Part shown: piece after piece, positions 14,042 through 64,000 of the stretch
How the letters are laid out: every line of letters starts with the position of its first letter
Position numbering within the stretch: the stretch's first letter is position 1
Assembly (NCBI GenBank): GCA_964416445.1
Contig: CAYQEE010000010.1
Coordinates: forward strand, 1,136 to 65,135
Reading direction: 5' to 3'
Source of the DNA: an uncultured Gammaproteobacteria bacterium
GTDB lineage: Bacteria > Patescibacteriota > Microgenomatia > Levybacterales > UBA12049
Length of the DNA: 64,000 bases
Made by a program: the position numbers and the translations under genes
The notes under the pieces: generated by a model
Database searches by the model: none
What the model was told of the DNA's origin: nothing
Seen by the model: the letters and a program-made list of their open reading frames with translations, nothing else

Positions 14042-14230
14042 TTATTTCTTTACTTGTTTTTTTATTACTTCCCGGCCTTTATAAAATCCACATGCTTGGC
14101 AGACGGTATGAGGACGTGTCATGATGCCACAATTAGGGCATTTGATTGCTCTCTTGACCGCGAGTTTGATACTTGCGCGACGTTCCCCTTTTCTTTCACG
14201 AGAATGACGACGTTTGGGTTCATGTGGCAT
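14042..14230 (-). CDS. rpmF: 50S ribosomal protein L32
   Basis: MPHEPKRRHSRERKG...CPNCG...CQACG zinc ribbon. Start trimmed from the ORF-track 14269 to the conserved MxxxPKRR start. Confidence 0.8.
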   Translation of the reverse strand: MPHEPKRRHSRERKGERRASIKLAVKRAIKCPNCGIMTRPHTVCQACGFYKGREVIKKQVKK

Positions 14231-14240
14231 ATTGGAACAT

Positions 14241-14269
14241 ATTGTACCTAATTTTAGCTTTCTACGCAA
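14241..14269 (-). promoter_or_regulatory. Sigma70-like promoter for rpmF (TTGCGT-17-TACAAT)
   Basis: On the minus strand, -35 is the rc of 14264-14269 and -10 is the rc of 14241-14246, with a 17-nt spacer. The predicted start lies only a few nt before the ATG, giving a near-leaderless transcript. Confidence 0.4.
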
Positions 14270-14329
14270 CTGCTAAATAGGAAGGCTATTAGTTAAGGAT
14301 ATTTATAATTAATCGTATAAAATACTATA

Positions 14330-14358
14330 TTGACATCAATTGATCTTGATGCTACTGT
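14330..14358 (+). promoter_or_regulatory. Sigma70-like promoter for the stand-alone REC gene (TTGACA-17-TACTGT)
   Basis: TTGACA at 14330-14335, 17-nt spacer, TACTGT at 14353-14358. The start codon (GTG) lies about 8 nt downstream, so the transcript would be leaderless. Confidence 0.35.
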
Positions 14359-14364
14359 AAATTT

Positions 14365-14793
14365 GTGGAAGCTGGAAAAATATTGATCGTCGAAGACGAA
14401 CTTTTTCTCCGCGAACTTTATATTGATACACTAACGCAAGAAGGGTACCAGATAGATTGGGCGTCGGAAGGTGAAGAGGCTCTTCAAAAAATCCTCAAAG
14501 GAGGTTTTGATCTAATCCTTCTTGATATTATTCTTCCGAAAATGAATGCGTTTCAAATCATGGAATCCTTGAACAATAACCCTGCGTACAAAGGGAATCA
14601 AACACCGATTGTCTTTTTAACCAATATCGATAATGATGGTGATATTAAAAAAGCATTATCTCTTGGCGGAGCTGGTTATCTGATTAAAAGTCAAATTACC
14701 CCCGGTGATCTGGTACGAGAAGTGAAAGTTTATTTCACAAAAAACTCTTCTGATAATTCTGCAGGACAAAATCCTTCGCTAGGAAATAGTTAA
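14365..14793 (+). CDS. Stand-alone response-regulator receiver (CheY-like REC) protein
   Basis: KILIVEDE...DLILLDIILPKMNAF...KS REC signature, 142 aa, no output domain. GTG start. Confidence 0.75.
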   Translation: MEAGKILIVEDELFLRELYIDTLTQEGYQIDWASEGEEALQKILKGGFDLILLDIILPKMNAFQIMESLNNNPAYKGNQTPIVFLTNIDNDGDIKKALSLGGAGYLIKSQITPGDLVREVKVYFTKNSSDNSAGQNPSLGNS

Positions 14794-39755: not shown

Positions 39756-39765
39756 ATTTAGGTAT

Positions 39766-39788
39766 AAAAAAACCTCCCTTGTGGGAGG
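39766..39788 (-). terminator. Leader-region intrinsic terminator (attenuator 3:4 hairpin) directly upstream of aroG
   Basis: Minus-strand RNA CCUCCC-ACAA-GGGAGG followed by U7. It ends 11 nt before the aroG ATG. Confidence 0.6.
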
Positions 39789-39811
39789 TGCTGTTTCTTC
39801 TTTTGTGTGTT

Positions 39812-39886
39812 TTATTTTACACGAAACAACCTCCCGGGTTGGGAAGTAAAGTAAAAATAAAACCAACTTTTATTTTGTAAATGCAT
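39812..39886 (-). CDS. Aromatic amino-acid attenuation leader peptide (24 aa: MHLQNKSWFYFYFTSQPGRLFRVK)
   Basis: A small ORF in the aroG leader with a run of UGG UUU UAU UUU UAC UUU (W F Y F Y F) immediately 5' of hairpin arm 1 (CUUCCC, 39846-39841). Its stop codon lies between the alternative hairpins. Confidence 0.55.
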   Translation of the reverse strand: MHLQNKSWFYFYFTSQPGRLFRVK

Positions 39887-49947: not shown

Positions 49948-51147
49948 ATGGGAAAAACAATTGTGTACTTCAGTTACCGAGGTCTTGGACATTTTAATCC
50001 AACGAGTATTTTTGCGGCAGAATTGGTAAAACGAGGACATAACGTAATATACTATGCGGCAGATCAGTATCGTGACACACTTCATTCGTTAGGTATTCAC
50101 CAAAAATCCTATCCCCAATGGCATTTTAGTGAAGGAAATGCACATGGTAATTTAGGAGTACTTGCAAGAGAAGTAGTTGAAATAACAAATCGATCTCTGC
50201 CAATATTACTTGAAGAAATGCGAAATATAAATCCTGATATCATTCTTTATGACACTATTGCTATGTGGGGAAATGTTATTGCACATGTTCGTCAGAAACC
50301 CTCCGTTGCTCTCTTTACCACATTTGCCTTTAATGCTCATGTTTCAAGACATTTTCCATCAATTTATCTATCTCTATTGATAAAAGCACTTCTTAAGAAG
50401 CCTGATGGAATTTATGCTTATTATCGATATTGCAAACTTGCAAAAAAATATTCCCTTTCGCCAAAATCACTTACTGAATTTCTTCTTAGTAAAGGGACGA
50501 TGAATATTGTTTTCACCTCGGGTTATTTTCAACCGTGCTCTGAAAGTTTTGATAATTCATTTCATTTTGTTGGTCCTTCCCTATCAAAGAGAAAAGAAAC
50601 GATTGATTTTTGGAATAAACTTGATTTAAAGAAAAAAACAATCTACATTTCTCTTGGATCTATTTTGACTGATAATTTAAATTTCTATAAACTCTGTATA
50701 AATACATTTGCTAACGCTCCATATCAAGTAATTTTGTCTTTAGGTAATACGTTTACTATAAAAGATTTACCTCCAATACCCCAGAATATTTTTGTAAAAA
50801 ATTATATACCGCAACTTGAGATACTTCAAAAAACAGATGTTTTCATAACTCATGGTGGGATGAATAGTGTTAGCGAGGGTTTATATTACGGAGTACCCTT
50901 AGTCATAATACCTCATACAGACGAAATGAAAATGAACGCAAAGCGTGTCGTTGAATTAAGAGCTGGTGTACAACTGTCAAAAGATCATCTTACTTCACAA
51001 AAACTCAAAAATGCAGTTGCATTACTCTTACAAGAAAAACGGTATTCGCAGCATGCTGCGATGATTCAATCTTCATTTCGAAATGCAGGTGGATATAAAA
51101 AAGCATGCAAAATTGTTGATGATTACTTGAAAGAAAATCGTAGATAA
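49948..51147 (+). CDS. GT1-family UDP-glycosyltransferase (MGT/UGT-like GT-B)
   Basis: N-terminal GHxNP motif (GLGHFNPT). C-terminal UDPGT signature region (THGGMNSVSEGLYYGVPLVIIPHTDEMKMNAKRV). Start set at the ATG at 49948 (MGKTIVYF). Confidence 0.7.
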   Translation: MGKTIVYFSYRGLGHFNPTSIFAAELVKRGHNVIYYAADQYRDTLHSLGIHQKSYPQWHFSEGNAHGNLGVLAREVVEITNRSLPILLEEMRNINPDIILYDTIAMWGNVIAHVRQKPSVALFTTFAFNAHVSRHFPSIYLSLLIKALLKKPDGIYAYYRYCKLAKKYSLSPKSLTEFLLSKGTMNIVFTSGYFQPCSESFDNSFHFVGPSLSKRKETIDFWNKLDLKKKTIYISLGSILTDNLNFYKLCINTFANAPYQVILSLGNTFTIKDLPPIPQNIFVKNYIPQLEILQKTDVFITHGGMNSVSEGLYYGVPLVIIPHTDEMKMNAKRVVELRAGVQLSKDHLTSQKLKNAVALLLQEKRYSQHAAMIQSSFRNAGGYKKACKIVDDYLKENRR

Positions 51148-51854
51148 TGAAAGCTGAATCTCTTACTATAGTTAATAATAAAAATCAGAAACTTCACGGA
51201 ACTTTTTATAGAAATACATCTAAAACTCTTGTAATTATGTGTCATGGTATTGAGTCATTTACTGATTTTCCTGGAATGGAGAAAGTATATACCGCATATT
51301 TTAAAACGGGTAGCTCTGTTTTCTTTTTTGATTTTTCAGGTTATGGAAAAAGTGAAGGTAAAAAAGTATTAAGTATAAAACAACGGGTAGAAGATATTGG
51401 GAGTGTAATTCGTTATTTTGATGAATATCAAGAGATCATTCTTTATGGAGTAAGCTTGTCTGGCATTGTTGTGTTGATTGCTGCGGGAAAATATAAAAAA
51501 GTTACCAAATTAATTACTATTAATGGTTTATTCTCAATTCAGTTAGCGCATTTATATTTACGTCAAGCATTTATCCTATATAGCTACTTACTTTTTCATC
51601 CAAATAGCTGGAGTGATGTGTACTATATAATAAAAAATGCTAATCCAAAACAAATTACGATACCAGTTCTAGTAGTATATGGTGAAAAGGATTCTATAGT
51701 AAAACCTAAACAGTCAGTAGACTTTTACAAGAAAATACGTACAAGCAAAACACTCATCACGGTTCCCAATGGTGATCATCCATTAATGAAAACTGAATTT
51801 GAAAAGGTAACTATTAGTATTCCTCAATGGATAGCTGGGTGGGTTATTAAGTGA
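51147..51854 (+). CDS. Alpha/beta hydrolase (GxSxG), translationally coupled to the glycosyltransferase
   Basis: HG oxyanion region (VIMCHG). GVSLSG nucleophile elbow. C-terminal GDHP. The start overlaps the GT stop. Confidence 0.6.
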   Translation: MKAESLTIVNNKNQKLHGTFYRNTSKTLVIMCHGIESFTDFPGMEKVYTAYFKTGSSVFFFDFSGYGKSEGKKVLSIKQRVEDIGSVIRYFDEYQEIILYGVSLSGIVVLIAAGKYKKVTKLITINGLFSIQLAHLYLRQAFILYSYLLFHPNSWSDVYYIIKNANPKQITIPVLVVYGEKDSIVKPKQSVDFYKKIRTSKTLITVPNGDHPLMKTEFEKVTISIPQWIAGWVIK

Positions 51855-51875
51855 TACCTGATGAATTTAACTTAC

Positions 51876-51952
51876 TGGTGGAGCCAAGTGGACTTGAACC
51901 ACTGACCTTTACAATGTCAATGTAACGCTCTAGCCAGCTGAGCTATGGCTCC
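51876..51952 (-). tRNA. tRNA-Val (anticodon GAC), CCA encoded
   Basis: Manual fold of GGAGCCAUAGCUCAGCUGGCUAGAGCG-UUACA-UUGACAU-UGUAA-AGGUC-AGUGGUUCAAGUCCACU-UGGCUCC-A-CCA. 7-bp acceptor, anticodon loop UUGACAU. Confidence 0.8.
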
Positions 51953-51982
51953 GTGTAGCCCATTATAGCAAACATGGATATT

Positions 51983-53068
51983 TTACGAAAGTGAAAGAAG
52001 GAAATTCTTTAAGATATTATAGTATTCAAAAAGACTTTTTATTTCAACGCATTCATTATCCCCATGCTGGTTCTTCCCTACAACACCAAACTCAATGCCC
52101 AAACAACCAACGTCATTATAGAACCGCAAATCTGATGTTGCATGAGCTACTCGTAAATGAGCCTTTTTATTAGTTGTTCTTTCTATATGTTTTCTTAATT
52201 GGGTAATATAATTATTATCCTCGCTAATAAAGGTTGGATTAGTATTTTGAACAATAGTTAATTTTATATTTGCTGGGATGACTTGTTTGATTTTTTCCAA
52301 CACCGTTTCTTGGTCTTCGTGGACAAATCGTAAATCAATATGTGCAGTTGCTTCTTCAGGAACTGCATTAAACGTTTTATTACTTGTCTCGATTCTTGCT
52401 AAATTTATTGTCGTTACCCAAGCCTCTTTGGAAGGTACAGGATAGAGTTTTCTGATTTTGTATAGCGTATCTGTTAACTTCCAAAGAGCATTTTCTCCTC
52501 TCCATGGATATCCTCCATGCGCTGTGGATCCTGCTGCTGTTAAGGTGAACCAAAGGGCACCTTTCGATTTGTGAATAATATCCAAGTTTGAAGAACATTC
52601 TCCGCAGATGATAAAATCTCCTCTCACCCCTTGTTTAATTTGATATTGTGTTGAATTTTCGCTTGAATTTTCTTCATCTGTAACAATTTGCAACGCAATT
52701 GGATAGGAAACCTGATTAGCAATTTCATTAAAAACAAGTATCATAACTGCAGCGGCTGCTTTCATATCATAAGCGCCACGACCATAAAGATAACCGTCTC
52801 TTTCCTCTGGTTGATATTGTTCTCTTTTCCCGGGGACTACATCAAGATGTGCATTCAAGATAATTTTATAACGAGAATTTTTTGTTAAACTATTATGAAT
52901 AAGTAAACTAGGAATCTTATTTGATTCAAATCTTTTCGTAACAAACGTGGGTGCTACTACTTCTTGCACAATATGTAAGATATTATCTAATGCATTAAGG
53001 TTATCTCTTGTTGATGGTATCGTAATAAGTTTTTTTGTTAATGTAAGAATTTCTGTCTTTGTTACCAT
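51983..53068 (-). CDS. M20-family metallopeptidase (ArgE/DapE-like deacylase)
   Basis: HLDVVPG. GRGAYDMKAAAAVM. Metal-binding His/Glu pattern. 361 aa. Confidence 0.7.
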   Translation of the reverse strand: MVTKTEILTLTKKLITIPSTRDNLNALDNILHIVQEVVAPTFVTKRFESNKIPSLLIHNSLTKNSRYKIILNAHLDVVPGKREQYQPEERDGYLYGRGAYDMKAAAAVMILVFNEIANQVSYPIALQIVTDEENSSENSTQYQIKQGVRGDFIICGECSSNLDIIHKSKGALWFTLTAAGSTAHGGYPWRGENALWKLTDTLYKIRKLYPVPSKEAWVTTINLARIETSNKTFNAVPEEATAHIDLRFVHEDQETVLEKIKQVIPANIKLTIVQNTNPTFISEDNNYITQLRKHIERTTNKKAHLRVAHATSDLRFYNDVGCLGIEFGVVGKNQHGDNECVEIKSLFEYYNILKNFLLSLS

Positions 53069-53191
53069 TGAAATATTTTAGATTTGATTATGAGCAGTTT
53101 TTAGGCATGCATATTCTATCTAGTATACCGTATACAGGTAATTCATCAAAGTAATTCTTAAATTCCTTCGTGTACTTGGAAAGAGGAGTAT

Positions 53192-53416
53192 TTAATTCAT
53201 AAAGAGAATAAAAAACACCATTAGTCCAACTGAAAATATTGCAAAAAATGTACCAATTTTCATTAATGCTATTGAAAGGCCAGGTAATTCTAGTCCAAGT
53301 TGATGTCGTACTTTTTCGATTCTCACTTTATAGATCCAGTTATATATACCTATTAAAGCCGTGATGCTTAGAAGGACAACGTATACTGAATTTGTTACAT
53401 TACTCATTATTACCAC
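53192..53416 (-). CDS. Tiny 2-TM membrane protein (module copy 1)
   Basis: 74 aa. Two hydrophobic helices flanking a basic loop (KVRIEKVRHQ). 7-nt overlap with the upstream bPH_2 gene. A paralog with the same layout sits at 59713-59913. Confidence 0.5.
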   Translation of the reverse strand: MVIMSNVTNSVYVVLLSITALIGIYNWIYKVRIEKVRHQLGLELPGLSIALMKIGTFFAIFSVGLMVFFILFMN

Positions 53417-54054
53417 CTCCCTCCTAATGAAAATCTTCCTGTGCCTTGTTTACTTATCGCTTCAGGGGCTGTTGTCTGATGTGCTCGGAACCAAATTGGA
53501 CGAATTGCATTTGCATCCAATGTTGAGAACATATTATTCAAAAGGACAGCGATTTTTCTCGGATTTTGTATATCAGTTAAAATAAATTCCTCTTGATGAG
53601 TTGGACGATCAAATGTTATGACAATATCACCCATATCAACAAGTTCATTTAATATGCCATGTTTTTTCTCATCAATCTCTGTGCATCGAACTTGGTCCAG
53701 TAATACAATATTAATCCGATAAAAATATAATGGCGAAAAATAGACTTCTAAAATTTTTCTATTTGTCACAATGAACAGATGGAAATACCAGTCTACACTT
53801 GCTTTAACTATTAAACTCAACGTTGCACAAATTACCACCAATATACCTGAAATAAAAAGGGTTGGATAGTCGAGCAATTTGTCAAAAAGGACAAATAGAA
53901 TTAAGTAAAAAGGTATACTCAGTGCAATAATATTTATTATTTCACGACATAAGATTACCGGATGTTTTCTTTCTGCTAGCACTAACTGCTCATCAGGAAG
54001 GGTAATAAAATATTCGAGAGGACTTGGTATTTTTTTTTCAGTTATTCCTGCCAT
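53410..54054 (-). CDS. bPH_2 (YdbS/YdbT-like bacterial PH-domain) membrane protein (module copy 1)
   Basis: Two N-terminal TM helices followed by the WYFHLFIVTNRKILEV bPH_2 core. Clear paralog of 59917-60489 (WYFTFYIVTNKRLIIR). Confidence 0.6.
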   Translation of the reverse strand: MAGITEKKIPSPLEYFITLPDEQLVLAERKHPVILCREIINIIALSIPFYLILFVLFDKLLDYPTLFISGILVVICATLSLIVKASVDWYFHLFIVTNRKILEVYFSPLYFYRINIVLLDQVRCTEIDEKKHGILNELVDMGDIVITFDRPTHQEEFILTDIQNPRKIAVLLNNMFSTLDANAIRPIWFRAHQTTAPEAISKQGTGRFSLGGRW

Positions 54055-54227
54055 AACGTACCTCCTTTATCCGTCTCTTAATAGGTGTTTTCTAAAAGTA
54101 GTTATTCATATTTCGTTTCTTTGCCCCCTAACGTTACTCTTTTTAATTTTAAATGCAGTGAGATATCTTACCAAATACTAGTAATTTTAATTGCAATTTT
54201 ACTTTTTTATACTATAATTTCCCTATC

Positions 54228-54878
54228 TTGAATACGGAAACGTTTAAAAAGGTAAATGCATTCTTTCTACAATTCAATTCGTTTCATTATAAAAAACGAG
54301 AAACTATTCTATTCACTAAAGATGTTCCTCCTGGCGTGTTTTATATAACAAAAGGTTATGTGCGAAGTTACCTCCTTTCCAAAGAGGGTAAAGAATTAAC
54401 AGTAACTTTGCTCAAACCATTTGATGTTTTTCCCATGCATTGGGTTATTAATAACGTTCTTACGTCTCATTATTACGAAGCATTAGTACCGGTGGAAGTG
54501 TATCGATGTCCAAAAAAAAATTTTCTGTTCTTCTTAGAACAAAATCATGATGTCTTTTTTTATATAATCAGCTTAATTCTTTTAAGACTCCAAAATTCTT
54601 CAGAACGAATAGAAGCTGCTGTGCTGGGGAATGCCTCTGCGAAAATAGCAGGTATGCTTGAGTTTCTTATCGAAATTGCAGGAACAAAAAGCGGAAGTGG
54701 CGTTGTAATCGATTTACCGATAACTCATAAAGATATTGCCGCTTTTATAGGACTAGCGAGAGAAACAGTAAGTATCGAAGTAGAGAGACTACGAAGAGAA
54801 GGGATTTTAGAACAAAAAGCACACCGATTTGTTATTAAAGATTTAAAAAAACTTAAAGAGGAAACCAATATTGATTGA
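54228..54878 (+). CDS. Crp/Fnr-family transcriptional regulator (module copy 1)
   Basis: cNMP-binding beta-roll (GVFYITKGYVRSYLLSKEGKELTV) plus C-terminal HTH (IAAFIGLARETVSIEVERLRREG). Divergent from the bPH_2 gene. Confidence 0.7.
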   Translation: MNTETFKKVNAFFLQFNSFHYKKRETILFTKDVPPGVFYITKGYVRSYLLSKEGKELTVTLLKPFDVFPMHWVINNVLTSHYYEALVPVEVYRCPKKNFLFFLEQNHDVFFYIISLILLRLQNSSERIEAAVLGNASAKIAGMLEFLIEIAGTKSGSGVVIDLPITHKDIAAFIGLARETVSIEVERLRREGILEQKAHRFVIKDLKKLKEETNID

Positions 54879-54886
54879 ATTTACTC

Positions 54887-55555
54887 TTAACCTGCTTGTG
54901 TGGCTATTGCTCGTTCACCTGATAGACTAAATTTCGTTCCATGTTTTTTAGCCATATCCCAATAATTTGGTTTCTTCTTTTTACTAGCCATCCCTTGTTT
55001 TTGTTTTCCATTCATGGTTGTTAACCAAACACTTGCATTATCGATTTTCTGACGTGCATCTCGAACAACTGACAGCACCCAGTTAAAGAATGATTTATGA
55101 TATTTACCTGGACTTACTAGCGTTTGTCCTGTCGCTTCAACAATTTCCTTTTCTAATTGCTTGGTACTACTTGCTAAACTTTTTAATTCTAAAATAACTT
55201 CTTGTATTTCCTGTTTTGTTTTTTGTTCATCTACATGGTTTTTCTCGCCAGCTCGGAGGATTTCACCAATATAATCGATACCTGGTCGAATTGCTTGTGC
55301 GTGGTTTTCTACTGATTGTAGTTTCTTTGTTTCAGCTTGTTGTTGTGCTTTATGAGATTTTAGATCGAGTTCTTGACCTGGCTGAAGATCGCCTTTCTTA
55401 GGCAATGCAAAAAGTTCGTGAACTACTTCACTGAAGATTTCTTTTGTTTGTTGTTTAGTTTCTTCTCCAAACTCCCGAATTACTTCATACGGATTAACGT
55501 ATGAGTTCTTTAGGTTGTTTTTTTTCTTTTTCTGTACTATAGGGTCACCTAGCAT
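54887..55555 (-). CDS. Hypothetical charged/coiled-coil protein (222 aa)
   Basis: K/Q/E-rich, no recognised motif. Confidence 0.4.
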   Translation of the reverse strand: MLGDPIVQKKKKNNLKNSYVNPYEVIREFGEETKQQTKEIFSEVVHELFALPKKGDLQPGQELDLKSHKAQQQAETKKLQSVENHAQAIRPGIDYIGEILRAGEKNHVDEQKTKQEIQEVILELKSLASSTKQLEKEIVEATGQTLVSPGKYHKSFFNWVLSVVRDARQKIDNASVWLTTMNGKQKQGMASKKKKPNYWDMAKKHGTKFSLSGERAIATQAG

Positions 55556-55570
55556 AGTTGTATAACCCTA

Positions 55571-56419
55571 TCACAAATTCTTGAGAAAATCAAGTGTTTT
55601 CTGTTGTCTAAGTATACTGGCAAGGAGATAGACATTCGATTCTAATTGCTTTCGCTCTGTATCATCTTTTGCTTTTTTCAGAGCTTCCTCTACTTCTTCT
55701 GGATTGACTGCTATTTTCTCTACTTCAGCAATTTTTTGTAAAGCAAATTCAAATTTTATATCGTTTTCCGCCTTGGTTTGATATTCACTTTTTAAAGATT
55801 CTATTGATTTTCCTGTTGATGCAATATATTGGTCAAGGGAAAGTCCTAATGATTTGATCTCTGAGAGTAATTGAGAGAGAAGTCTTTCGACCTCTCCTTC
55901 TACGAGAATTTTGGGAACAGTTACCGTTATTTTATCAAGGAGTACTTTGACAATATCATCAAAATTAGGTTGTTGAGGCTCCTTACCGGGAATGACAATT
56001 TTACTTTTTACTGTTATGTTTTTAATAGCGTCTTTATAGTCATTTAACGCAACTTCAGGCATTTCACAAGTTGAAGCCGTAAATACCCAATCTTTCCCTT
56101 CCTCAAAATTTTCCACATGAATTTTAGGGTTAATGATTGGTTTAATATTATGTTCTGAGACTGCTTTTGAATATGCATCGGGCAATAGTTTTTTTAATAC
56201 TTCCTCACGTACTTTTTCAAAATTAATATGGTTTATTGCCACATTTTTTGGTGCTTTACCCTGTCTAAAGCCAGGAACCGTAACATATTGAACTGCTTTA
56301 TCAATCTCTATTTCTGTAGCTTTTTGCACATCTGCAGTAGGAAGCGTAATGGTAAAAGTAATAGTTCCATCAGTGTCTTTTTTTATAGTTGATATAGGTT
56401 TTGTTGTATCTTTTTTCAT
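55571..56419 (-). CDS. tig: Trigger factor (shortened, about 282 aa)
   Basis: Ribosome-binding signature VPGFRQGKAPKNV in the N-domain and C-terminal chaperone arm. About 150 aa shorter than canonical, so the PPIase domain is apparently absent. The ORF-track start (56506) reads through tRNA-Leu and was trimmed to the ATG at 56419. Confidence 0.7.
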   Translation of the reverse strand: MKKDTTKPISTIKKDTDGTITFTITLPTADVQKATEIEIDKAVQYVTVPGFRQGKAPKNVAINHINFEKVREEVLKKLLPDAYSKAVSEHNIKPIINPKIHVENFEEGKDWVFTASTCEMPEVALNDYKDAIKNITVKSKIVIPGKEPQQPNFDDIVKVLLDKITVTVPKILVEGEVERLLSQLLSEIKSLGLSLDQYIASTGKSIESLKSEYQTKAENDIKFEFALQKIAEVEKIAVNPEEVEEALKKAKDDTERKQLESNVYLLASILRQQKTLDFLKNL

Positions 56420-56430
56420 AGTTATATTAG

Positions 56431-56512
56431 TGGGTCGGAGAGGAATCGAACCTCCAACCCGTAAGGGATACGGTCCTAAACCGTACGCGTATGCCAGTTC
56501 CGCCACCGACCC
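56431..56512 (-). tRNA. tRNA-Leu (anticodon UAG), class II long variable arm
   Basis: Manual fold. Acceptor GGGUCGG/CCGACCC + A. Anticodon stem UACGG/CCGUA with loop UUUAGGA. Long variable arm. T-arm GGAGG-UUCGAUU-CCUCU. No encoded CCA. Confidence 0.75.
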
Positions 56513-56536
56513 GAAATTTTCTTAAGTATACTTTAT

Positions 56537-57133
56537 TTATAAGGAAATTGGAAGAGTCGGAACGAGTTGTGATTCATAATTTAATTTCGATGCTTCCATT
56601 TGAACTAAGAAAAAACGAGTATGTGTTGGCCAAGCATCTGAAGAAGCATAAACATGACCGATCTCTTCCAGACTCGAGAGGTGAAATTTATCAATATAAT
56701 CTTCCCTTAAGGATTTCGAAACAGTTTTAATTGATTCTTCGTAGGAAGTAAAGCAAGTCATATGGCCTGTATAAATTCCAAAACCAAAAGGGTTATTACA
56801 ATTTGCGGGAACTTCCTGTCCAAAGGTGGATTCAGTTCCTGCCACAGCAGCAACTAAATTCCATGGTAGGTTATATAAGTCCGCCTGATCTATGAATACT
56901 TGTGCATATTGCGATAGTGGGGAATTCCACTTTTGCAAATATTCTTTCAAAACCTCAACTCTGTAATCTTTTTTCTTTAGTGTTAACTGAGCCTCACGTG
57001 TTGCTCCTTGAGTTTCAAGAGCTGTGACATTAGGAGTGAGTTCAGCACTGTCTCCTGCCGCGTGTGCTTGCTTTATATTGAGAAGGGACAGTATGAGAAA
57101 AAAGAAAACAAAAATAGTAATTTTTGCTTTCAT
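56537..57133 (-). CDS. Secreted glucosaminidase-family (PF01832-like) peptidoglycan hydrolase, paralog A
   Basis: Signal peptide MKAKITIFVFFFLILSLLNIKQAHAAG. Core LVAAVAGTESTFGQ...NNPFGFGIYTGH. Paralogous to 57251-57859. Confidence 0.55.
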   Translation of the reverse strand: MKAKITIFVFFFLILSLLNIKQAHAAGDSAELTPNVTALETQGATREAQLTLKKKDYRVEVLKEYLQKWNSPLSQYAQVFIDQADLYNLPWNLVAAVAGTESTFGQEVPANCNNPFGFGIYTGHMTCFTSYEESIKTVSKSLREDYIDKFHLSSLEEIGHVYASSDAWPTHTRFFLVQMEASKLNYESQLVPTLPISL

Positions 57134-57250
57134 ACGAAATTGGCAATTATTTTGCCATAAAAAAAATCCTAACGTATGCATTTGAGAGGCATACCTTAGG
57201 ATCTAGAAAGTAGTATATCACACGACTATAGGTTTGTCAAGACCCCGTTT

Positions 57251-57859
57251 TTAGAGGATAGTAGATATCTGGTTCATGAAATAATTAACCTTACTTGACC
57301 AGCCATTATTATTGGTTGGGTTATAAAATTGTTGAATTTGCTCTGGGGTAATATACCCTTTTTTTATGTAATTTTGGGCAAATAATTTAGAGATTGTTTC
57401 GATTGCAGTTGGATAATCTTGAAAGCTTGTAGTATGACCATGATATATTCCCCACCCCCAGCAATTATTAGTATTTGGTATCTCAGTTTTACAAAGTTGA
57501 GATTCCTGAGCGGCAATTGCAGGAAGATATCGATAATCAATATTATAATGATCTGCAGCGTCAATGATATTTTGCGCATATTGTTCCAATACAGATCCAT
57601 ATAAATGGAAAAACGATTTCACACGTGCTACACGCGTATCTCCTGTACCCACAATTCCTGTTACTTCTGTCTCCGCAGATGGTAATGCTGCGTACGTTAT
57701 GGAAGAATTAGCAGTGAATTTTGTAGACAGCGTGAGGAATTGTTGTTTTTGATTTAAACTATAGGAATAGAAAGCAAAGAAAATAATACTAACTATGATA
57801 ACACAAGGTGTTATCGTAAAGAAACTTATAAGCAGAAATAAATTTCTCATGGATAACAA
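57251..57859 (-). CDS. Membrane-anchored glucosaminidase-family peptidoglycan hydrolase, paralog B
   Basis: N-terminal TM anchor. Core LPAIAAQESQLCK...NNCWGWGIYHGH, same motif spacing as paralog A. Confidence 0.55.
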   Translation of the reverse strand: MLSMRNLFLLISFFTITPCVIIVSIIFFAFYSYSLNQKQQFLTLSTKFTANSSITYAALPSAETEVTGIVGTGDTRVARVKSFFHLYGSVLEQYAQNIIDAADHYNIDYRYLPAIAAQESQLCKTEIPNTNNCWGWGIYHGHTTSFQDYPTAIETISKLFAQNYIKKGYITPEQIQQFYNPTNNNGWSSKVNYFMNQISTIL

Positions 57860-57925
57860 TTTATATTGGCATATTTCAAATAGGTTGTCAAGAAAAATTG
57901 CTTTTGTTACAATGGTTTGACTTTA

Positions 57926-58009
57926 GCCCAGGTGGCGGAATGGTAGACGCGCTAGCTTCAGGAGCTAGTTCCCTCAACAGGAGTGGGAGTTCGAGTCTCC
58001 CCTTGGGCA
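57926..58009 (+). tRNA. tRNA-Leu (anticodon CAG), class II
   Basis: Manual fold. Acceptor GCCCAGG/CUUGGGC (one G-U) + A73. Anticodon stem CUAGC/GCUAG with loop UUCAGGA. Long variable arm. T-arm GGGAG-UUCGAGU-CUCCC. Confidence 0.75.
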
Positions 58010-58156
58010 CTTTAATCGCCTGCAGTAAATATGAATTGATGTTTGAAGTAAAATAAATATATATTCCTCATTGCAATGAGGGTAAAATTTATTGCACCCA
58101 AATAATAAATCCAATATTCTCATATATATAAGAATATCTGTTGAAATTTATAAAAT

Positions 58157-58591
58157 ATGAATATACAAATTCGTGAAGCTAAAAAAGAAGATGTGTCTTG
58201 GATTGTTAACTCTGCAAATCAAACACGTGAACTTTGGAGTAGTAAAAAATCAAGGTGGTTTAAAGAAGAAGATATTCATATATTGCTCGATAAAAGGAAT
58301 ACGGATACAATTTTCTTAATTGCTGAGGCTGATTTTTCGCCTGTTGGATTTATTTTAGTACAACAACTCCATGTTTGGGCTATATGTTTTGGTCTTTATG
58401 TTACGTCAGATTTTCGAAGTAAAGGTATAGGAAAACAATTATTAAAAACTGTAGAAAATATATTACTTACAAGAGGTATTCAAACATTGGATTTGTTGGT
58501 AGAGAGGGATAATAGAAAAGCATTGGGATTTTATAAAAGAGAGGGTTTCGATCAAGGGTTTGAATTCTATTGGATGAGTAAAACTTTATAG
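58157..58591 (+). CDS. GNAT-family N-acetyltransferase
   Basis: Acetyl-CoA motif A region (FRSKGIGKQLL). 144 aa. Confidence 0.65.
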   Translation: MNIQIREAKKEDVSWIVNSANQTRELWSSKKSRWFKEEDIHILLDKRNTDTIFLIAEADFSPVGFILVQQLHVWAICFGLYVTSDFRSKGIGKQLLKTVENILLTRGIQTLDLLVERDNRKALGFYKREGFDQGFEFYWMSKTL

Positions 58592-58861
58592 CCGTCTGAA
58601 AAATAGAACTGTACCAAAATTATTACGACTAAATTAGGGATAATTTACGTTAACCTGACATAATTTTGTAATTGAAAATAAATAGTAAATATAGTTTCCA
58701 AAAGAATTTGATAATCGACAACTTCTGTGCACTTATCCCCAAATATAAAAACCTATGCTAATTTTTAAGGTTATAAGTTCAATTCTCCTTCGCAGTACTT
58801 TCTATCTTGATAAGGAATCTTTCCTGAGCTTTTATTTTTATAGTATAATTTAGTTAAATCT

Positions 58862-59686
58862 ATGGATGTATCAGCTATAGAACATTTACCACAAGAATAT
58901 ACAAAAAAAGACATTAGTACACAAAATGAGATATCTTTAGAAAAAGTAGAAAATAGATCGCCTGGTATCCGTGGATTTATCACTGAGATAACATCTAAAT
59001 ATTTCGACCCTACCACTGGAAAAAAGTCATTACCTAAAACAGATGAAGAAGTTGAGGAAATAGCGAGGATATACGGAATAGACGTAATCGGTATGGGTTC
59101 AGAGTCTGTCGTCTTTGCTAAACCTTCACGAACTGGCACATTAACAAAAACTGGTCATGAACAAGTGATTTCTCTGTTTTGGCAACCACACAATGAAAAC
59201 GAACTTAAGCAAATACAACTTGTAAGTGAAATTTTACATACTATTTATCCAGATGCATATCCGTTAATACAAAGCTTTATAGGTAAAGTTAAGTGGAATT
59301 TTACTGGCGTAGAGATACCGGTTACTGGAACAATTAGAGAAAGAGTTAGAACTTTACCTAATAACCAAATAGTTGGCAATATAGAAGATCAAATTTCAAT
59401 GGCTCATTCTGTCTGGGATGAATTTAATTTACCATTCAATTATCAGAATATGCTTGATATTGAAGAAGCTCACGGCAACGTAGGTATAAGGGAAACAAAA
59501 GAAGGAAAGTTCACAAATGTTTTTTTAGATACTATTCGTGGTGAAAAAAATTTTGAACTTCCTGATTTAGTAGGATTTGCAAACTACTTACGTGGTCAAG
59601 ATTCCAAACTTCCTCATACTCCTCTCCCTGAATCTGAAATTGGAAGGACAATAGAAAAAGTTTCTGATTTGATTAAATTAGTGTAA
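58862..59686 (+). CDS. Hypothetical protein (274 aa), weak kinase-like features
   Basis: Glycine-rich GMGSESVVF followed by K. HGNVGI...FLD motifs loosely reminiscent of a protein-kinase-like fold. Unconfirmed. Confidence 0.35.
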   Translation: MDVSAIEHLPQEYTKKDISTQNEISLEKVENRSPGIRGFITEITSKYFDPTTGKKSLPKTDEEVEEIARIYGIDVIGMGSESVVFAKPSRTGTLTKTGHEQVISLFWQPHNENELKQIQLVSEILHTIYPDAYPLIQSFIGKVKWNFTGVEIPVTGTIRERVRTLPNNQIVGNIEDQISMAHSVWDEFNLPFNYQNMLDIEEAHGNVGIRETKEGKFTNVFLDTIRGEKNFELPDLVGFANYLRGQDSKLPHTPLPESEIGRTIEKVSDLIKLV

Positions 59687-59712
59687 TTATTATTTCCTTT
59701 TATAGGTAGCTA

Positions 59713-59913
59713 CTAGGGAAAAAATCCAATAATAAAAAGTGTTCCAAGTATAAGTAGTACGTTAAATATGACAACATATTTCCAAACTTTATGGATACTA
59801 AGATGTGATTTTTTTTCAGCACGCCTAATTTTCATTACAATATAGAGGTATGCTAAAAGCATACATAATTCACAGAAGAAAAAAATAATTTTTATGTAAT
59901 ATGCGACGGTCAT
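59713..59913 (-). CDS. Tiny 2-TM membrane protein (module copy 2)
   Basis: 66 aa. TM, basic loop (MKIRRAEKKSHLSIHKVWKY), TM. 3 nt downstream of the bPH_2 gene stop. Confidence 0.45.
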   Translation of the reverse strand: MTVAYYIKIIFFFCELCMLLAYLYIVMKIRRAEKKSHLSIHKVWKYVVIFNVLLILGTLFIIGFFP

Positions 59914-59916
59914 ATA

Positions 59917-60489
59917 CTATTGTTTCACCATATTTGTTTCTATTTCTGCAAGTGCTTTTTCAATTTGTTCCGGATGATGTGGAGTTTTAAAACTGAATGG
60001 TTCGGGAATATCTTCTGTATGAATTGTTACGTAAATATCTTCTATATCAAGAAAATCATAAATAATATTTAATGTAATCCGTTTTGTTTCCAGTTCAACA
60101 CGGTTTTGTAATAGAAGTTCCTGATAGTATGTTCCAACAACTTTAAAATATTGTCTTATGATAAGGCGTTTATTTGTAACTATATAAAAAGTGAAATACC
60201 ACTTCATACTCGTATATGTTCCAACGATTGCTAATAGAGAGAGAAAAAGAAGTGACATATAGACAAAAACCTCCCAAAAATTTGGTAGCAATTTGAAGAT
60301 AAAGAGAAAGGTAAGAGTTATAAAAACAAACGCAATAAGCAACGTATGTGTGATAAAAAGCATTGCTAAAGCAATAGGATGTTGTCTCTGAACATTCAGC
60401 ACCTGTTCTTCAGGTAAAAGATCTATTGCTAATCTGCTATGTTCATACACAACTTGTTTGTTTTCCATATAAATCCATAGTTTCCACAA
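59917..60489 (-). CDS. bPH_2 (YdbS/YdbT-like) membrane protein (module copy 2)
   Basis: Two TM helices plus the WYFTFYIVTNKRLIIRQ core. 190 aa. Confidence 0.6.
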   Translation of the reverse strand: MWKLWIYMENKQVVYEHSRLAIDLLPEEQVLNVQRQHPIALAMLFITHTLLIAFVFITLTFLFIFKLLPNFWEVFVYMSLLFLSLLAIVGTYTSMKWYFTFYIVTNKRLIIRQYFKVVGTYYQELLLQNRVELETKRITLNIIYDFLDIEDIYVTIHTEDIPEPFSFKTPHHPEQIEKALAEIETNMVKQ

Positions 60490-60729
60490 TATTTTTATCT
60501 GAATGATAGTGAATATATTTTCCTTTTTGATAAAGTACCAGTTCCTAAAGTATTATAGTTGCAAAAATATAAAACAATAAATACCGTCTTAAGAAAATTT
60601 GCTCTGCCAAAGATGGGAAACGTATTATTTGTGATCTTGTTAAAATGTTGCATTATATACCCTCCTTGTTCTCACCTGCTATACTACTCTTGTTATAGCA
60701 AGAAGACAGTGATGACTGACACACATATT

Positions 60730-61377
60730 ATGGATATACAGGTAAACGAAAAAGTAACAAATTTCTTTACAAAATATAAAAAACAACAATTTAAAAAAGG
60801 CGAAATACTTATTCGTGCCGATGAAGATCCTCAAGGGATTTTTTATCTTGCAGATGGTATTGTCAGAAGCTACTATATTTCAAAAAAAGGTGACGAAATA
60901 ACCCTTAATATGTTTAAACCTCATACGTTTTTTCCAATGTCATGGGTTGTAAGTGACATTCACAATCAGCGTTATTTTGAAGCAATGACTGCATGCATTA
61001 CTTATAAAGTACCAAAGGAAAAAGTGTTAGCATTTATTAAAAAAGAACCAGATGTCGTTTTGGATTTGCTGAGACGTGTCTATATAGGTATTGAAGGTTT
61101 ATGGATGCATATTGAATACTTATCAAGCGGTAATGCGCTTGAAAAGTTAATTTCGACACTTCTCATTCTTGGGAAAAGGTTTGGAAGAGAAGAAGGTGGA
61201 AGAACGACAATTCAATTGAAATTAACAGAAAAAGAATTAGGAGAATACTCAGGCATGTATAGAGAAACGGTAAGCCGCGAAATGCAACTATTAAAAGAAA
61301 AAGGACTAGTGGTATTTAGTAAAGGAACTATCACTATTCCTGATCTTAAAAAATTGGAGAATGCTCTGCCATTATAA
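60730..61377 (+). CDS. Crp/Fnr-family transcriptional regulator (module copy 2)
   Basis: GIFYLADGIVRSYYISKKGDEITL beta-roll and C-terminal HTH (LGEYSGMYRETVSREMQLLKEKG). Start set at the ATG at 60730 by alignment with the copy-1 N-terminus. The ORF-track start at 60559 is probably an over-extension. Confidence 0.65.
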   Translation: MDIQVNEKVTNFFTKYKKQQFKKGEILIRADEDPQGIFYLADGIVRSYYISKKGDEITLNMFKPHTFFPMSWVVSDIHNQRYFEAMTACITYKVPKEKVLAFIKKEPDVVLDLLRRVYIGIEGLWMHIEYLSSGNALEKLISTLLILGKRFGREEGGRTTIQLKLTEKELGEYSGMYRETVSREMQLLKEKGLVVFSKGTITIPDLKKLENALPL

Positions 61378-61770
61378 CCAGGAAGCACCAAATTGTTCTC
61401 CGACCATAACTTTTGTAATTAATTCTTTTGTAGGTGTGATTGGATATTGTTTTTCTTGTTTTTTTGTACTTACAGGTAAACCCTCAGGTAATAAATACCC
61501 TTGCCATTTCCCTTCTCCGACAAATAATTCCAAATGTATCTCTGGTGTAAGTTTTTCTTCATAATGCACATGATAAAGTCGGTAACTTCCTTCGGCTAAC
61601 GTATTTTCTTCTTGTATTTTCCCATAAAACCTCTCAATAATTTCACCTGCATTACCTACGTTAAACCAAGCAAAAGTATCTTTGTTATTAAGGATGAGTA
61701 TTCTTTTTTTTTCGGTTGTTTCTATCAGCCGGTACTGACCTCGGTTAATAATACTAATCATATTTTTCAT
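61372..61770 (-). CDS. Hypothetical protein (132 aa)
   Basis: ORF convergent with the Crp copy-2 gene. No motif recognised. Confidence 0.35.
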   Translation of the reverse strand: MKNMISIINRGQYRLIETTEKKRILILNNKDTFAWFNVGNAGEIIERFYGKIQEENTLAEGSYRLYHVHYEEKLTPEIHLELFVGEGKWQGYLLPEGLPVSTKKQEKQYPITPTKELITKVMVGEQFGASWL

Positions 61771-62003
61771 ATTCTCATATTTTGTTAATTTTTTATGTGA
61801 CGATAAACACTTTTCTATTGTGATTATAGCTACGGAAATTTATGTTGATCATTTTTATTATTTATGATATAGCGCATTGTATATGAAACAACATATTACT
61901 TTTATCAATGAATTAATTAAATATACATTCCTTGATATTTATGGTATCTATCATGCATAGAAAGTAGGAGTAACTGTACGGGTGATATAGAAAAGAGTAT
62001 CGT

Positions 62004-62753
62004 ATGAGGCTAAAAAATAAAGTAGCAATCATCACAGGAGGAGGAACGGGCATTGGACGGGGTATTGCATTAGAATTTGCTAAACAAGGAGCATGTGTCG
62101 CTATTTGCGGTAGACATAAAGAACAACTAGATGATGTTGCTCATGAGATTACCTTAAATGGAGGAAGTAGTATAGGCTACGTTGCAGATGTCTCATCTGA
62201 AGAACAAATTAAAGATATGGTAGATAGTGTTATTTCCCACTTCGGAACCGTTGATATTTTGATAAATAATGCTGGGATTTATCTTCCTCATGAAGTTTTA
62301 TATACCTCAGAAAATGAATGGGATGCCACTTTTTGTATAGACATAAAAGGCATATTTTTAACTTCAAAAAAAATTCTTTCTGAAATGATAAAACACGAGT
62401 ATGGAAAAATAGTTAACATTGCATCTATTGCAGGTGTTGTTGGATTTGAAAAATCTGCTGCATATTGTGCTGCAAAAGGAGCTGTTATGAGTCTAACTCG
62501 TCAAATGGCACTCGATTATGCAAGAGAGAAAATCACTATAAATGCAATAGCTCCCGGAGTTATCTTTACAAATATGACTAAAGATTCTTTATCTTCCAAA
62601 GAAGCAACAGACGCAATACTACGAAAAATTCCAATAGGTCGAATTGGAACATCTCAAGATATTGCTAATGCAGCACTTTTCCTCGCATCTAATGAATCAA
62701 GTTACATAACAGGACAAACGCTTGTTGTTGATGGCGGTTGGACAATCCAGTAA
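62004..62753 (+). CDS. Short-chain dehydrogenase/reductase (FabG-like SDR)
   Basis: TGGGTGIGRG cofactor motif. NNAG. Catalytic Y-x3-K (YCAAKGAV). 249 aa. Confidence 0.8.
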   Translation: MRLKNKVAIITGGGTGIGRGIALEFAKQGACVAICGRHKEQLDDVAHEITLNGGSSIGYVADVSSEEQIKDMVDSVISHFGTVDILINNAGIYLPHEVLYTSENEWDATFCIDIKGIFLTSKKILSEMIKHEYGKIVNIASIAGVVGFEKSAAYCAAKGAVMSLTRQMALDYAREKITINAIAPGVIFTNMTKDSLSSKEATDAILRKIPIGRIGTSQDIANAALFLASNESSYITGQTLVVDGGWTIQ

Positions 62754-62870
62754 CCATTTGTATAAAACATAGGATATTACCATTTAGCTACGCAATATTT
62801 TACAATTTGGATCAATAATGATTGGTATGTTACCAATCATTTATTAATAAATAATGCAATGAACACAAAA

Positions 62871-62900
62871 ATCTCCAAGCAATTGGAGATTTTTGTTGTA
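62871..62900. terminator. Bidirectional intrinsic terminator
   Basis: Perfect 8-bp hairpin ATCTCCAA-GCAA-TTGGAGAT (GNRA loop). Flanked by TTTTTGTTG on the plus side and TTTTGTGTT on the minus side. Confidence 0.6.
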
Positions 62901-62902
62901 TG

Positions 62903-62990
62903 AGTCGCCAGGGATTTGAACCCTGATCTGTCTTCTTTCATTGCTGGAAGGAGGTAGTTCTTGCGCTTGAACTAGCGACCCGCATATGTG
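62903..62990 (-). ncRNA. tRNA-like element (88 nt) lacking a canonical anticodon arm. Possible degenerate tRNA or novel tRNA-like RNA.
   Basis: Minus-strand RNA GGGUCGC-UA-GUUC(AAGCGCAA)GAAC-...-CAGGG-UUCAAAU-CCCUG-GCGACUC-A. Perfect 7-bp acceptor (one G-U), 4-bp D-stem, canonical T-arm with a UUCAAAU loop. The 30-nt central region cannot form a 5-bp/7-nt anticodon stem-loop. Followed by a terminator. Confidence 0.4.
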
Positions 62991-63059
62991 CGCTCGGGGA
63001 GCCTTCCACTTCTGTCTTATTATCTTTAGAACTTTCATCCTATTTGCTTAAAGATAACA

Positions 63060-63086
63060 CGCTCTATCAAGTGAGCTACGGGCGCG
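63060..63086 (-). pseudogene. Orphan tRNA 5'-half fragment (acceptor strand + D-arm)
   Basis: Minus-strand GCGCCCG-UA-GCUC-ACUUGAUA-GAGC-G is a textbook tRNA 5' segment. No matching 3' acceptor strand is found downstream. Confidence 0.35.
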
Positions 63087-63357
63087 TGTCTATTTGAAAG
63101 TGTTTTAAAGAACAAGATAAATATAACTATATAAAAGAGTTTTTGCAGTGATGCCGATCACGAAATATGTGGGACAGCTTTTGTTAAGAAGTTAGAATGG
63201 ATTCATATAAGATTTAATTCTTAAATTACAGTTGTCTTAAAATTTTTACTACTTCCCTACTCTTTCATTCTAGTCTGTGTATAATGCTACGAAGAGATCT
63301 TGAAGAGTGATTCCTATCACTGCGGAATTCCTTTACTTATGATACAGGTAAATTAAT

Positions 63358-63861
63358 ATGGGAAATGTCTGGGGTATACTTTTCGGATTAGTTTTTGTCT
63401 CTCTAGGTGTTGGGCTTATCTTTGGAATTAACCTGTGGCGATATTTTTGGCCGATTCTCCTTATTCTTATCGGATTTAGCATTCTCTATAATCAATCATC
63501 CAATAGAGTCTCTAAGCAAGTAACTCACGAAAGTGCTCTTGACTATTCTGCCGTATTTGGAGGAGAAAATAAGAAAGTTATTACCGATGATTATCAAGGA
63601 GGAAAAGTCACATCAGTATTTAGTCGGGTAACTCTTGATCTGAGAGATGCAAAAATACCTAAAAACTCGACGGTAGTGCTTGAGGTAAGTGCAGTATTTG
63701 GAAGCGCGAAAATAATTGTACCTAAGACATGGTTAGTACAAGGATCACTTGCTGGCGTATTTGGAGGATATAATAACGCTACTACTGTTCCGGAGAAACC
63801 AGATGGAACACTCATTTTGAAAGGCGTAGCGGTTTTCGGAAGCGGTGAAGTTATCAATTAG
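63358..63861 (+). CDS. LiaF-like (DUF2154/DUF4097-type) membrane protein
   Basis: Two N-terminal TM helices, then a beta-rich C-domain with reiterated (S/A)VFG(G/S) motifs (SAVFGGENK, SAVFGSAKIIVPK, AGVFGGYNN, VAVFGSGEV). TGn-extended -10 TGTGTATAAT at 63276-63285 upstream. Confidence 0.45.
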   Translation: MGNVWGILFGLVFVSLGVGLIFGINLWRYFWPILLILIGFSILYNQSSNRVSKQVTHESALDYSAVFGGENKKVITDDYQGGKVTSVFSRVTLDLRDAKIPKNSTVVLEVSAVFGSAKIIVPKTWLVQGSLAGVFGGYNNATTVPEKPDGTLILKGVAVFGSGEVIN

Positions 63862-64000
63862 TAATTTCTCAAAAAGAGAAATTTAATGCACAGTATTATG
63901 AAGAATGATAACTCTATTATTTTACTAAGAATCATTCACGGACTGTTTGCAGGCTATTTTATCATTTGTGTTTTATATATTGACTATTCAGCATTAATTT

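Follow-up and report, generated by a model that had tools for sequence, protein, structure and literature searches.

A probable relic of a lysine-type tandem tRNA gene pair in a Microgenomates-group patescibacterium

The 64,000-nucleotide (nt) stretch of DNA analyzed here (contig CAYQEE010000010.1, positions 1,136 to 65,135, assembly GCA_964416445.1; hereafter the window) carries two transfer RNA (tRNA)-shaped units, which we call A and B, on its minus strand from 63085 to 62901, separated by 7 nt. Our favored interpretation, which we consider probable, is that units A and B are a decayed tandem pair of tRNA genes of the lysine type. The locus is probably a gene relic of the ordinary kind, and the chance that one of its two copies has acquired a new role is small. 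The chief evidence that the pair may descend from the same tandem as two adjacent genes in another Patescibacteria genome (L015) comes from sequence comparison, specifically from the upstream neighbor in L015.

In the scenario that we propose, two class-I tRNA genes standing in tandem in a Patescibacterium of the Microgenomates group would both have lost the ability to decode. Unit B would derive from a tRNA-Lys-type gene (acceptor GGGUCGC/GCGACYC) in which the 17-nt anticodon arm gave way to a 25-nt imperfect hairpin with a GCAA cap. Unit A would derive from the upstream gene of the ancestral tandem, most parsimoniously a tRNA-Lys(CUU), in which the anticodon stem became unpaired, a 23-nt insertion split the T-arm, the T-loop degraded and the encoded CCA was lost. 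Both would then be relics, that is, pseudogenes rather than exapted RNAs.

Anatomy of the two units

The features on which this interpretation draws are listed below in window coordinates, with lengths in nt or base pairs (bp).

62989..63085, minus strand: unit A, a degenerate 97-nt tRNA-like gene with acceptor GCGCCCG/CGAGCGC (one C.A mismatch), discriminator A and an intact D-arm, an unpaired anticodon stem and a disrupted T-arm; alignable with the tRNA-Lys(CUU) of L015
63061..63076, minus strand: D-arm of unit A, GCUC-ACUUGAUA-GAGC, with G18 A19 in place of G18 G19 (read from the sequence)
63048..63054, minus strand: anticodon-loop remnant of unit A, UCUUUAA, flanked by 5-nt strands in which only 2 of 5 positions are paired (MAFFT and pairwise alignment)
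63020..63057, minus strand: long arm of unit A, a 9-bp helix enclosing a 6-bp helix that ends in a GAAA tetraloop at 63036-63033 (inverted-repeat search, fold and alignment)
63003..63025, minus strand: 23-nt T-arm insertion of unit A, AGAUAAUAAGACAGAAGUGGAAG, relative to canonical tRNAs (MAFFT alignment columns 78-100)
62982..62988, minus strand: spacer between A and B, 7 nt (CAUAUGC), with no CCA encoded; its equivalent in L015 is CCAUCUUCA
62901..62981, minus strand: unit B, an 81-nt tRNA-like gene with acceptor GGGUCGC/GCGACUC (one G.U) and A73, D-stem GUUC/GAAC, a canonical T-arm and a replaced anticodon arm
62932..62953, minus strand: middle arm of unit B, 9 stacked positions consisting of 7 base pairs and two C.A mismatches, with a GCAA tetraloop (62944-62941) at the tip
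62909..62925, minus strand: T-arm of unit B, CAGGG-UUCAAAU-CCCUG (sequence, Rfam alignment and fold)
62865..62896, both strands: bidirectional intrinsic terminator with a 14-bp perfect stem, a 4-nt loop (GCAA on the plus strand) and A/T runs on either side

A preliminary description of this DNA had placed here a tRNA-shaped minus-strand element of 88 nt (62990-62903) with a D-arm, the T-arm at 62925-62909, a discriminator A and no normal anticodon stem-loop. These parts are all seen in the sequence, in the Rfam alignment and in the predicted fold, the latter two showing a replaced anticodon arm, and the element itself is 81 nt long and runs from 62981 to 62901. The acceptor stem forms 7/7 pairs but is not flawless, as had been stated, since one of them is G.U; the D-stem and T-stem are likewise complete (4/4 and 5/5 pairs), with a T-loop that follows the consensus. 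Unit B therefore has the acceptor stem and discriminator of a tRNA. What it does not have is an anticodon arm of 5 bp with a 7-nt loop and U33: 25 nt occupy the site of the 17-nt anticodon arm of the Rfam tRNA model. Its T-arm is canonical, but the G18 G19 needed for the elbow contact is absent, as the D-loop AAGCGCAA reads G18 C19 with G19 replaced by C.

The match of unit B to the Rfam tRNA model (RF00005) scores 34.8 bits against a gathering score of 29 (expectation value E = 1.4e-5 in a 601-nt search) and is obtained with permissive filters only, default filters reporting nothing. By minimum energy the unit folds into a cloverleaf (z = -2.99), and 0/200 shuffled sequences are equally stable. 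ARAGORN labels the unit 'tRNA-Cys' with an anticodon at position 38. This 'Cys GCA' anticodon is the GCAA tetraloop of the fold. Such a reading, the only one with a 7-nt loop, puts A33 in place of U33 and has a mismatched stem, and the discriminator is A73 rather than U73; the cysteinyl-tRNA synthetase CysRS requires U73. The 5' strand of the remodeled arm (62948-62955, minus strand) reads ACCUCCUU, which in a post hoc comparison coincides with an 8-nt stretch of the anti-Shine-Dalgarno region near the 3' terminus of 16S rRNA.

Upstream, the preliminary description had recognized a tRNA 5' segment, GCGCCCG-UA-GCUC-ACUUGAUA-GAGC, which is present at 63085-63061, and a 9-bp helix, UUAUCUUUA/UAAAGAUAA, which is indeed perfect (63057-63049/63028-63020). 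This 5' half is not an orphan, as had been supposed: a 3' acceptor strand, CGAGCGC, followed by a discriminator A, lies at 62996-62989 and pairs with it at 6/7 positions, and the Rfam tRNA model aligns with the full unit end to end (63085-62989, model positions 1-71) at 19.1 bits. This score is below the gathering score and the match alone is marginal (E = 0.055-0.3). A 6/7 acceptor complement within about 60 nt is by itself not significant either, with an estimated chance probability of about 0.5, and complements of 6-8 bp elsewhere in the locus occur at roughly the frequency estimated for chance.

Unit A departs from the tRNA class in both the anticodon arm and the T-arm and elbow. The stemless loop remnant UCUUUAA can be compared with the canonical lysine loops CUCUUAA or CUUUUAA. 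The T-loop remnant GUUCUAA (63032-63026) is overlapped by the long arm and is followed by the 23-nt insertion and then by the retained ...CUCCCCGAGCGCA end. A rod fold (-25.2 kcal/mol) is preferred over the cloverleaf (-20.2 kcal/mol). The exact 20-mer of the unit A D-arm, GTAGCTCACTTGATAGAGCG, is also present in functional tRNA-Thr genes with the T-loop UUUGAUC, in which A19-U56 stands for G19-C56. This shows only that such D-loops can function if the T-loop co-varies, and the sequence of unit A has no such T-loop. In metagenomes, the 20-mer was found only in tRNA-Thr genes and unrelated repeats. Two of the tRNA-Thr(UGU) genes, at 4927-5002 in L010 and 4980-5055 in L012 (minus strand), combine a G18 A19 D-loop with the T-loop UUUGAUC, such that A19-U56 replaces the near-universal G19-C56 elbow pair, and are followed by a GIY-YIG endonuclease-like open reading frame (ORF).

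Three further relationships were considered, and the first two were rejected. A paralogy of units A and B through the shared strings AGCAA(A)U, GAAAG and AAGACAGA has an alignment z of only about 2, and unit A aligns equally well to the tRNA-Val of the window. A decayed tRNA-Arg upstream of unit A, prompted by the string AUCGGCAUCA and by global alignment with L015, gives p = 0.37 against shuffles in local alignment. Finally, a single large RNA spanning A and B would be held together by the inter-unit helices UGGAAGG/CCUUCCA (7 bp) and GCAAUGAA/UUCAUUGC (8 bp), for which we estimate 0.6-2.6 chance matches in 290 nt.

A homologous tandem and the lysine assignment

We scanned 185,579 species genomes for the combination of the unit B acceptor, its T-loop and an over-long body. 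There were two matches, one an artefact of a run of N and the other in a Patescibacteria metagenome-assembled genome (JAMCXX010000001.1; L015). As the over-long body was imposed by the query, the excess length of the matching gene reflects selection bias, whereas the gene upstream of it was not imposed. On one strand, L015 carries in order a tRNA-Arg(UCG), a tRNA-Lys(CUU), a 9-nt spacer that includes CCA, and an 81-nt gene. The tRNA-Lys(CUU) is intact (71.5 bits), and its acceptor, GCGCUCG/CGAGCGC-A, matches that of unit A at 6/7 and 8/8 positions; a 10-nt 3' end, CCGAGCGCAC, is common to both. The next gene, beginning GGGUCGCUAG..., follows at a spacing like that in the window (9 vs 7 nt). 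This second, tRNA-Lys(CUU)-like gene (5788-5868, minus strand) has the form GGGUCGC...GCGACCC-A-CCA, scores 37.6 bits and has 24 nt where a 17-nt anticodon arm would be. It is followed by a terminator-like hairpin and is mislabeled tRNA-Gly(GCC) by ARAGORN. An identical copy is present in L022 and in L023, and the gene does not vary across three samples.

The two loci are therefore alike in gene order, in spacing and in having a terminator after the second gene. The acceptor GGGUCGC/GCGACYC, A73 and the T-arm of unit B match those of tRNA-Lys genes, and the acceptor GCGCYCG/CGAGCGC-A and a loop remnant, ...CUUUAAGC..., of unit A resemble the L015 tRNA-Lys(CUU). Unlike tRNA-Lys and the L015 genes, the window units do not have a 5-bp anticodon stem with a 7-nt U33 loop, unit B has no lysine anticodon and the T-arm of unit A is split. 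In addition, both L015 genes encode CCA, whereas neither window unit does, and G19 has been lost in both window units. A lysine anticodon, whether UUU or CUU, within a canonical loop is found nowhere in unit B, and in unit A there is only the stemless UCUUUAA.

Among tRNAs of viral contigs that carry the unit B acceptor, 5/6 are tRNA-Lys, and one has an identical GCGACUCA 3' end. The acceptor of unit A is less informative and weighs against the lysine assignment: in viral contigs L030-L125, GCGCYCG/CGAGCGC occurs in 96 tRNAs of normal length, comprising 73 tRNA-Arg, 12 tRNA-Lys, 5 suppressor-type tRNAs with a CUA anticodon, and others. The C5.A68 mismatch of unit A is also present in 12 of these 96 genes. 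Nor is the body of unit A any closer to lysine, with alignment scores of 30 for Lys, 34 for Arg and 29 for the tRNA-Val of the window. Because neither acceptor nor body is specific, the assignment of unit A to tRNA-Lys(CUU) rests on the tandem context in L015 and on the CUUUAAGC remnant.

Searches for other relatives were negative. The D-arm plus T-loop pattern of unit B has 0 matches in the 185,579 species genomes, and neither a 26-mer of unit B nor the signature of the tandem junction has any match in viral contigs. When the whole element was compared by BLAST with phages and plasmids, only short chance or generic tRNA matches came back. Neighbors of the GDH gene of L015 recovered only the same strain. 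Other tRNA-like sequence was seen on metagenome contig L009 (1-1107), which consists of tandem repeats of about 150 nt, each with a tRNA-like 5' part (GTAGCTCAYTTGATAGAGCG...) and a T-loop-like motif, GGGTTTGAATC; default ARAGORN finds no tRNA there.

Decay and its alternatives

Multiple alignment of the three abnormal genes reveals three differing lesions, unlike in position and in sequence. In the second gene of L015, 8 nt are inserted at the 5' side of the anticodon stem and the lysine loop CUCUUAA is kept; in unit B, the 8 additional nt are in the loop or follow it and a lysine anticodon is absent; and in unit A, the insertion is in the T-arm. The odd arms of unit B and of the L015 gene have no sequence, insertion point or predicted fold in common. 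As the lesions differ in position and sequence, they do not amount to a shared new architecture. We also scanned exhaustively all single deletions. In the second L015 gene, a tRNA-Lys(CUU) call is recovered once 6-8 nt are taken out at positions 28-35. For unit B, 0/1351 variants give tRNA-Lys, most calls misreading the GCAA tetraloop as Cys, and for unit A only 1/2701 variants gives a call of any kind, and no usable T-arm results whatever is removed. Differing lesions within one gene family, the failure of excision to restore a tRNA and the absence of positional conservation together favor pseudogenization. The suggestion of a decayed tRNA gene, which the preliminary description had offered as one of its options, is thus the best supported and extends to both units as a tandem.

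The deletion scan also bears on another explanation, that A and/or B are functional tRNA genes whose short intervening sequences are removed after transcription, and we give this very little credence. Extra bases do lie in or beside the anticodon arm, and when ARAGORN is run with introns allowed and its threshold lowered, it reads unit B as a tRNA-Trp(CCA) with a 7-nt intron. This reading is sub-threshold, however, appearing only at 80% of the default threshold, and needs an anticodon stem with 3/5 pairs. No deletion yields tRNA-Lys from unit B, and unit A has no usable T-arm. The insertions that had suggested a tRNA interrupted by an unusual insert are thus present, but with no single excision restoring a canonical tRNA-Lys, they are not of the intron type. 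Intron-containing tRNAs, whether archaeal with a bulge-helix-bulge or bacterial with a group I intron, likewise have extra nucleotides in or beside the anticodon loop. The inserts in the window differ in being 8-25 nt long and in having neither bulge-helix-bulge geometry nor a group I core or an insert of group I size, and their excision regenerates no canonical anticodon arm. No splicing system for tRNA inserts of 7-25 nt is known in bacteria. An intron of canonical position was met on an unrelated marine-sediment contig (L011, 1082-1201, minus strand), which is probably archaeal: its tRNA-Thr(CGU) carries a 47-nt intron at 37/38 that contains a hairpin with a GNRA tetraloop, and default ARAGORN misses the gene. 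This example counts in favor of the intron reading.

Several observations weigh against simple decay. First, unit B differs from canonical lysine genes and from L015 by double changes that preserve pairing, with C11-G24 replaced by U11-A24 in the D-stem and G49-C65 by C49-G65 in the T-stem, although these could predate the loss of function. Second, its decay is very uneven, the acceptor, D and T helices being kept and the anticodon arm being unrecognizable, a pattern expected either if one replacement event occurred recently or if selection has acted for an RNA that is tRNA-shaped but does not decode. Third, the replacement arms of both units end in GNRA tetraloops, and the 9-bp helix of unit A is improbable by chance (about 0.02, an estimate). 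Fourth, the terminator begins exactly 4 nt past the end of unit B. Fifth, Patescibacteria genomes are small and compact and usually hold few pseudogenes. Finally, codon usage in eight long ORFs (270 AAA vs 49 AAG) means that a working tRNA-Lys(UUU) must exist, presumably outside the window; such a gene is indispensable, and we infer its intact copies, and working tRNA-Lys genes generally, to lie elsewhere in the genome. A single recent replacement event per gene accounts for most of these points. A dicistronic transcript of the two units, ending at the terminator, may still be made and then processed by RNase P and 3' nucleases, because the parts recognized by these enzymes, acceptor stem and T-arm, are intact in unit B.

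The same observations can be read in favor of exaptation. Unit B, and possibly also the second gene of L015, could be a tRNA mimic whose intact acceptor/T-arm minihelix still lets RNase P and the CCA-adding enzyme mature it, whose remodeled, tetraloop-capped arm removes it from decoding, and which has another role, such as that of a decoy, a regulator or an amino-acid carrier outside translation. We regard this as unlikely. The pair-preserving changes in otherwise intact acceptor, D and T arms, a fold that no shuffled sequence equals and a terminator placed exactly at the 3' end of unit B are all consistent with it. So is the fact that the second Patescibacteria lineage also keeps, in the same tandem position, a gene that is over-long and non-canonical, shares the acceptor, encodes CCA, has a terminator-like hairpin downstream and is identical in three samples. 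However, since over-length was imposed by the query, the oddity of the L015 gene is partly a matter of selection, and the dissimilarity of the two odd arms speaks against this reading. Without G19, unit B loses the G19-C56 elbow pair, and its arm contributes at most about 5 kcal/mol, even with the extension of the D-stem included. Two sequences are too few for covariation, there is no positional conservation in relatives, and no Rfam family of mimics (YrlA, tmRNA or mascRNA) matches. The earlier option of a tRNA-like functional RNA is retained for unit B as an unlikely one; no positive evidence for it was obtained, and the single related locus, L015, has a different lesion. The further proposal that unit B and the over-length L015 gene constitute a Patescibacteria-specific class of non-decoding mimics derived from tRNA-Lys we hold to be improbable. 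Such RNAs would retain the acceptor/T-arm minihelix, be processed and CCA-tailed in the manner of a tRNA, be kept out of translation by the remodeled anticodon arm and serve, for instance, to decoy nucleases that target anticodons, or have a regulatory or carrier role outside translation.

A last alternative, which appears quite improbable, views the pair as the scar of a mobile element that integrated into a tRNA gene, leaving an attachment-site (att) remnant at the edge of an island. tRNA genes are common integration targets, and a tRNA-Leu(CAG) lies 5 kb away (57926-58010), with several ORFs of no known family in the interval. Yet direct repeats of any tRNA segment are absent from 50000-64000 (14 kb), the neighboring ORFs include no integrase, recombinase or phage family, and a complementary tRNA half (of the CGGGCGC type), for which a search had been proposed, is not found within the window. 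Furthermore, integration normally leaves a 3' fragment rather than two full-length units with paired acceptor stems. This part of the original suggestion of a decayed gene or att remnant thus has no support.

Related genomes had likewise been proposed as a place to seek an intact tRNA at the same site. Homologs of the neighboring LiaF-like gene (53-64% protein identity) are adjoined by other genes and by no tRNA or tRNA-like element, and homologs of the short-chain dehydrogenase (SDR) gene in Microgenomates-group relatives (about 60% identity) are adjoined by no tRNA or tRNA-like element. Partial synteny was seen in L028, which shares a bPH_2 protein, a Crp/Fnr regulator and the SDR gene with the window. 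Downstream of its SDR ortholog (11546-15991) are genes for a helix-turn-helix protein, a PLD-family nuclease, a large serine recombinase and a phage capsid protein, which have the look of an integrated element, and there is no tRNA. This recombinase/capsid element could be counted in favor of an integration scar, and the missing tRNA against it; the element suggests that the region is plastic, and nothing more. Overall, the decayed tandem ranks first and the tRNA mimic second, and the integration scar and the intron trail behind.

Genomic setting and implications

The gene content of the window, which includes PBP1a, RecG, PheT and a type IV pilus ATPase, is bacterial, and its G+C content is 36%. 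The SDR gene (62004-62753, plus strand) is convergent with the A-B pair. Its closest homologs bear the names Microgenomates, Roizmanbacteria and Levybacteria, which places the organism in the Microgenomates group of Patescibacteria. The locus is no assembly artefact, as the A-B sequence is identical between independent assemblies of two samples (SRR12266074 and SRR12266072); the second sample differs by one single-nucleotide polymorphism, which is in the SDR gene, with none in the A-B RNA. The GNRA-looped bidirectional terminator of the preliminary description is borne out as a 14-bp perfect inverted repeat with a GCAA loop and a stable fold (-17.5 kcal/mol, z = -7.0). It lies 112 nt past the SDR stop codon and is common to this gene and the A-B pair. 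A 64-aa ORF that overlaps the RNA (62844-63038, minus strand) was dismissed as a gene: it has no Pfam or PHROG family, crosses the terminator and is not called in the source contig.

Two other elements of the window were noted in passing. At 63306-63321, a perfect palindrome, AGTGAT-AGGA-ATCACT (GTGAT-N4-ATCAC), resembles Crp/Fnr-type half-sites and lies about 40 nt upstream of the start of the LiaF-like gene (63358), with a Crp/Fnr-family regulator gene 2 kb away (60559-61377). The Rfam family Phe_leader is matched below its threshold (43 bits, gathering score 55, E = 8e-4) at 39763-39877 (minus strand), overlapping an ORF start; a terminator-like hairpin is probably responsible.

Among known systems, the units resemble tRNA pseudogenes in several respects. 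They form partial cloverleaves, their tRNA scores of 34.8 and 19.1 bits are reduced relative to the 52-70 bits of the real tRNAs of the window, they have insertions or deletions in functional loops and the center of unit A is AT-enriched relative to functional tRNAs. They differ in that decay is concentrated in the anticodon arm in B and in the anticodon and T arms in A, leaving acceptor and D stems fully paired, and in that the replaced arms form tetraloop-capped helices.

A tRNA-like acceptor/T-arm module without a decoding anticodon loop is also seen in the tRNA-like domain of transfer-messenger RNA (tmRNA) and in YrlA. On a reading of their sequence, however, the window units have no tag reading frame, no pseudoknots and no Ro-binding stem. 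In the Rfam search, no family other than tRNA matches (tmRNA, signal recognition particle (SRP) RNA, RNase P, YrlA, T-box, riboswitches and mascRNA being among those considered), and such sub-threshold matches as remain are due in every case to the terminator hairpin. With ARAGORN, the window yields no tmRNA, and the Rfam tmRNA clan has no match at E <= 10 over 62700-63300, in agreement with the earlier judgment that tmRNA and SRP-RNA readings were unconvincing. YrlA (RF02553) has no match at E <= 10 in the locus region, where the 5' and 3' ends pair instead as tRNA acceptor stems. YrlA is circularly permuted relative to the topology of the window units, and no rsr or rtcB genes are seen near the locus.

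If units A and B are relics, their value is mainly practical, as an annotation trap. Unit B passes the Rfam threshold, yet default filters miss it and ARAGORN calls it tRNA-Cys, and counts of tRNA genes in a reduced Patescibacteria genome could be inflated or distorted as a result. The relics would also indicate that streamlined Patescibacteria genomes, too, keep decaying tRNA genes. Were unit B instead a maintained tRNA mimic, which the present evidence does not favor, it would represent a new class of small RNA in a poorly understood bacterial radiation.

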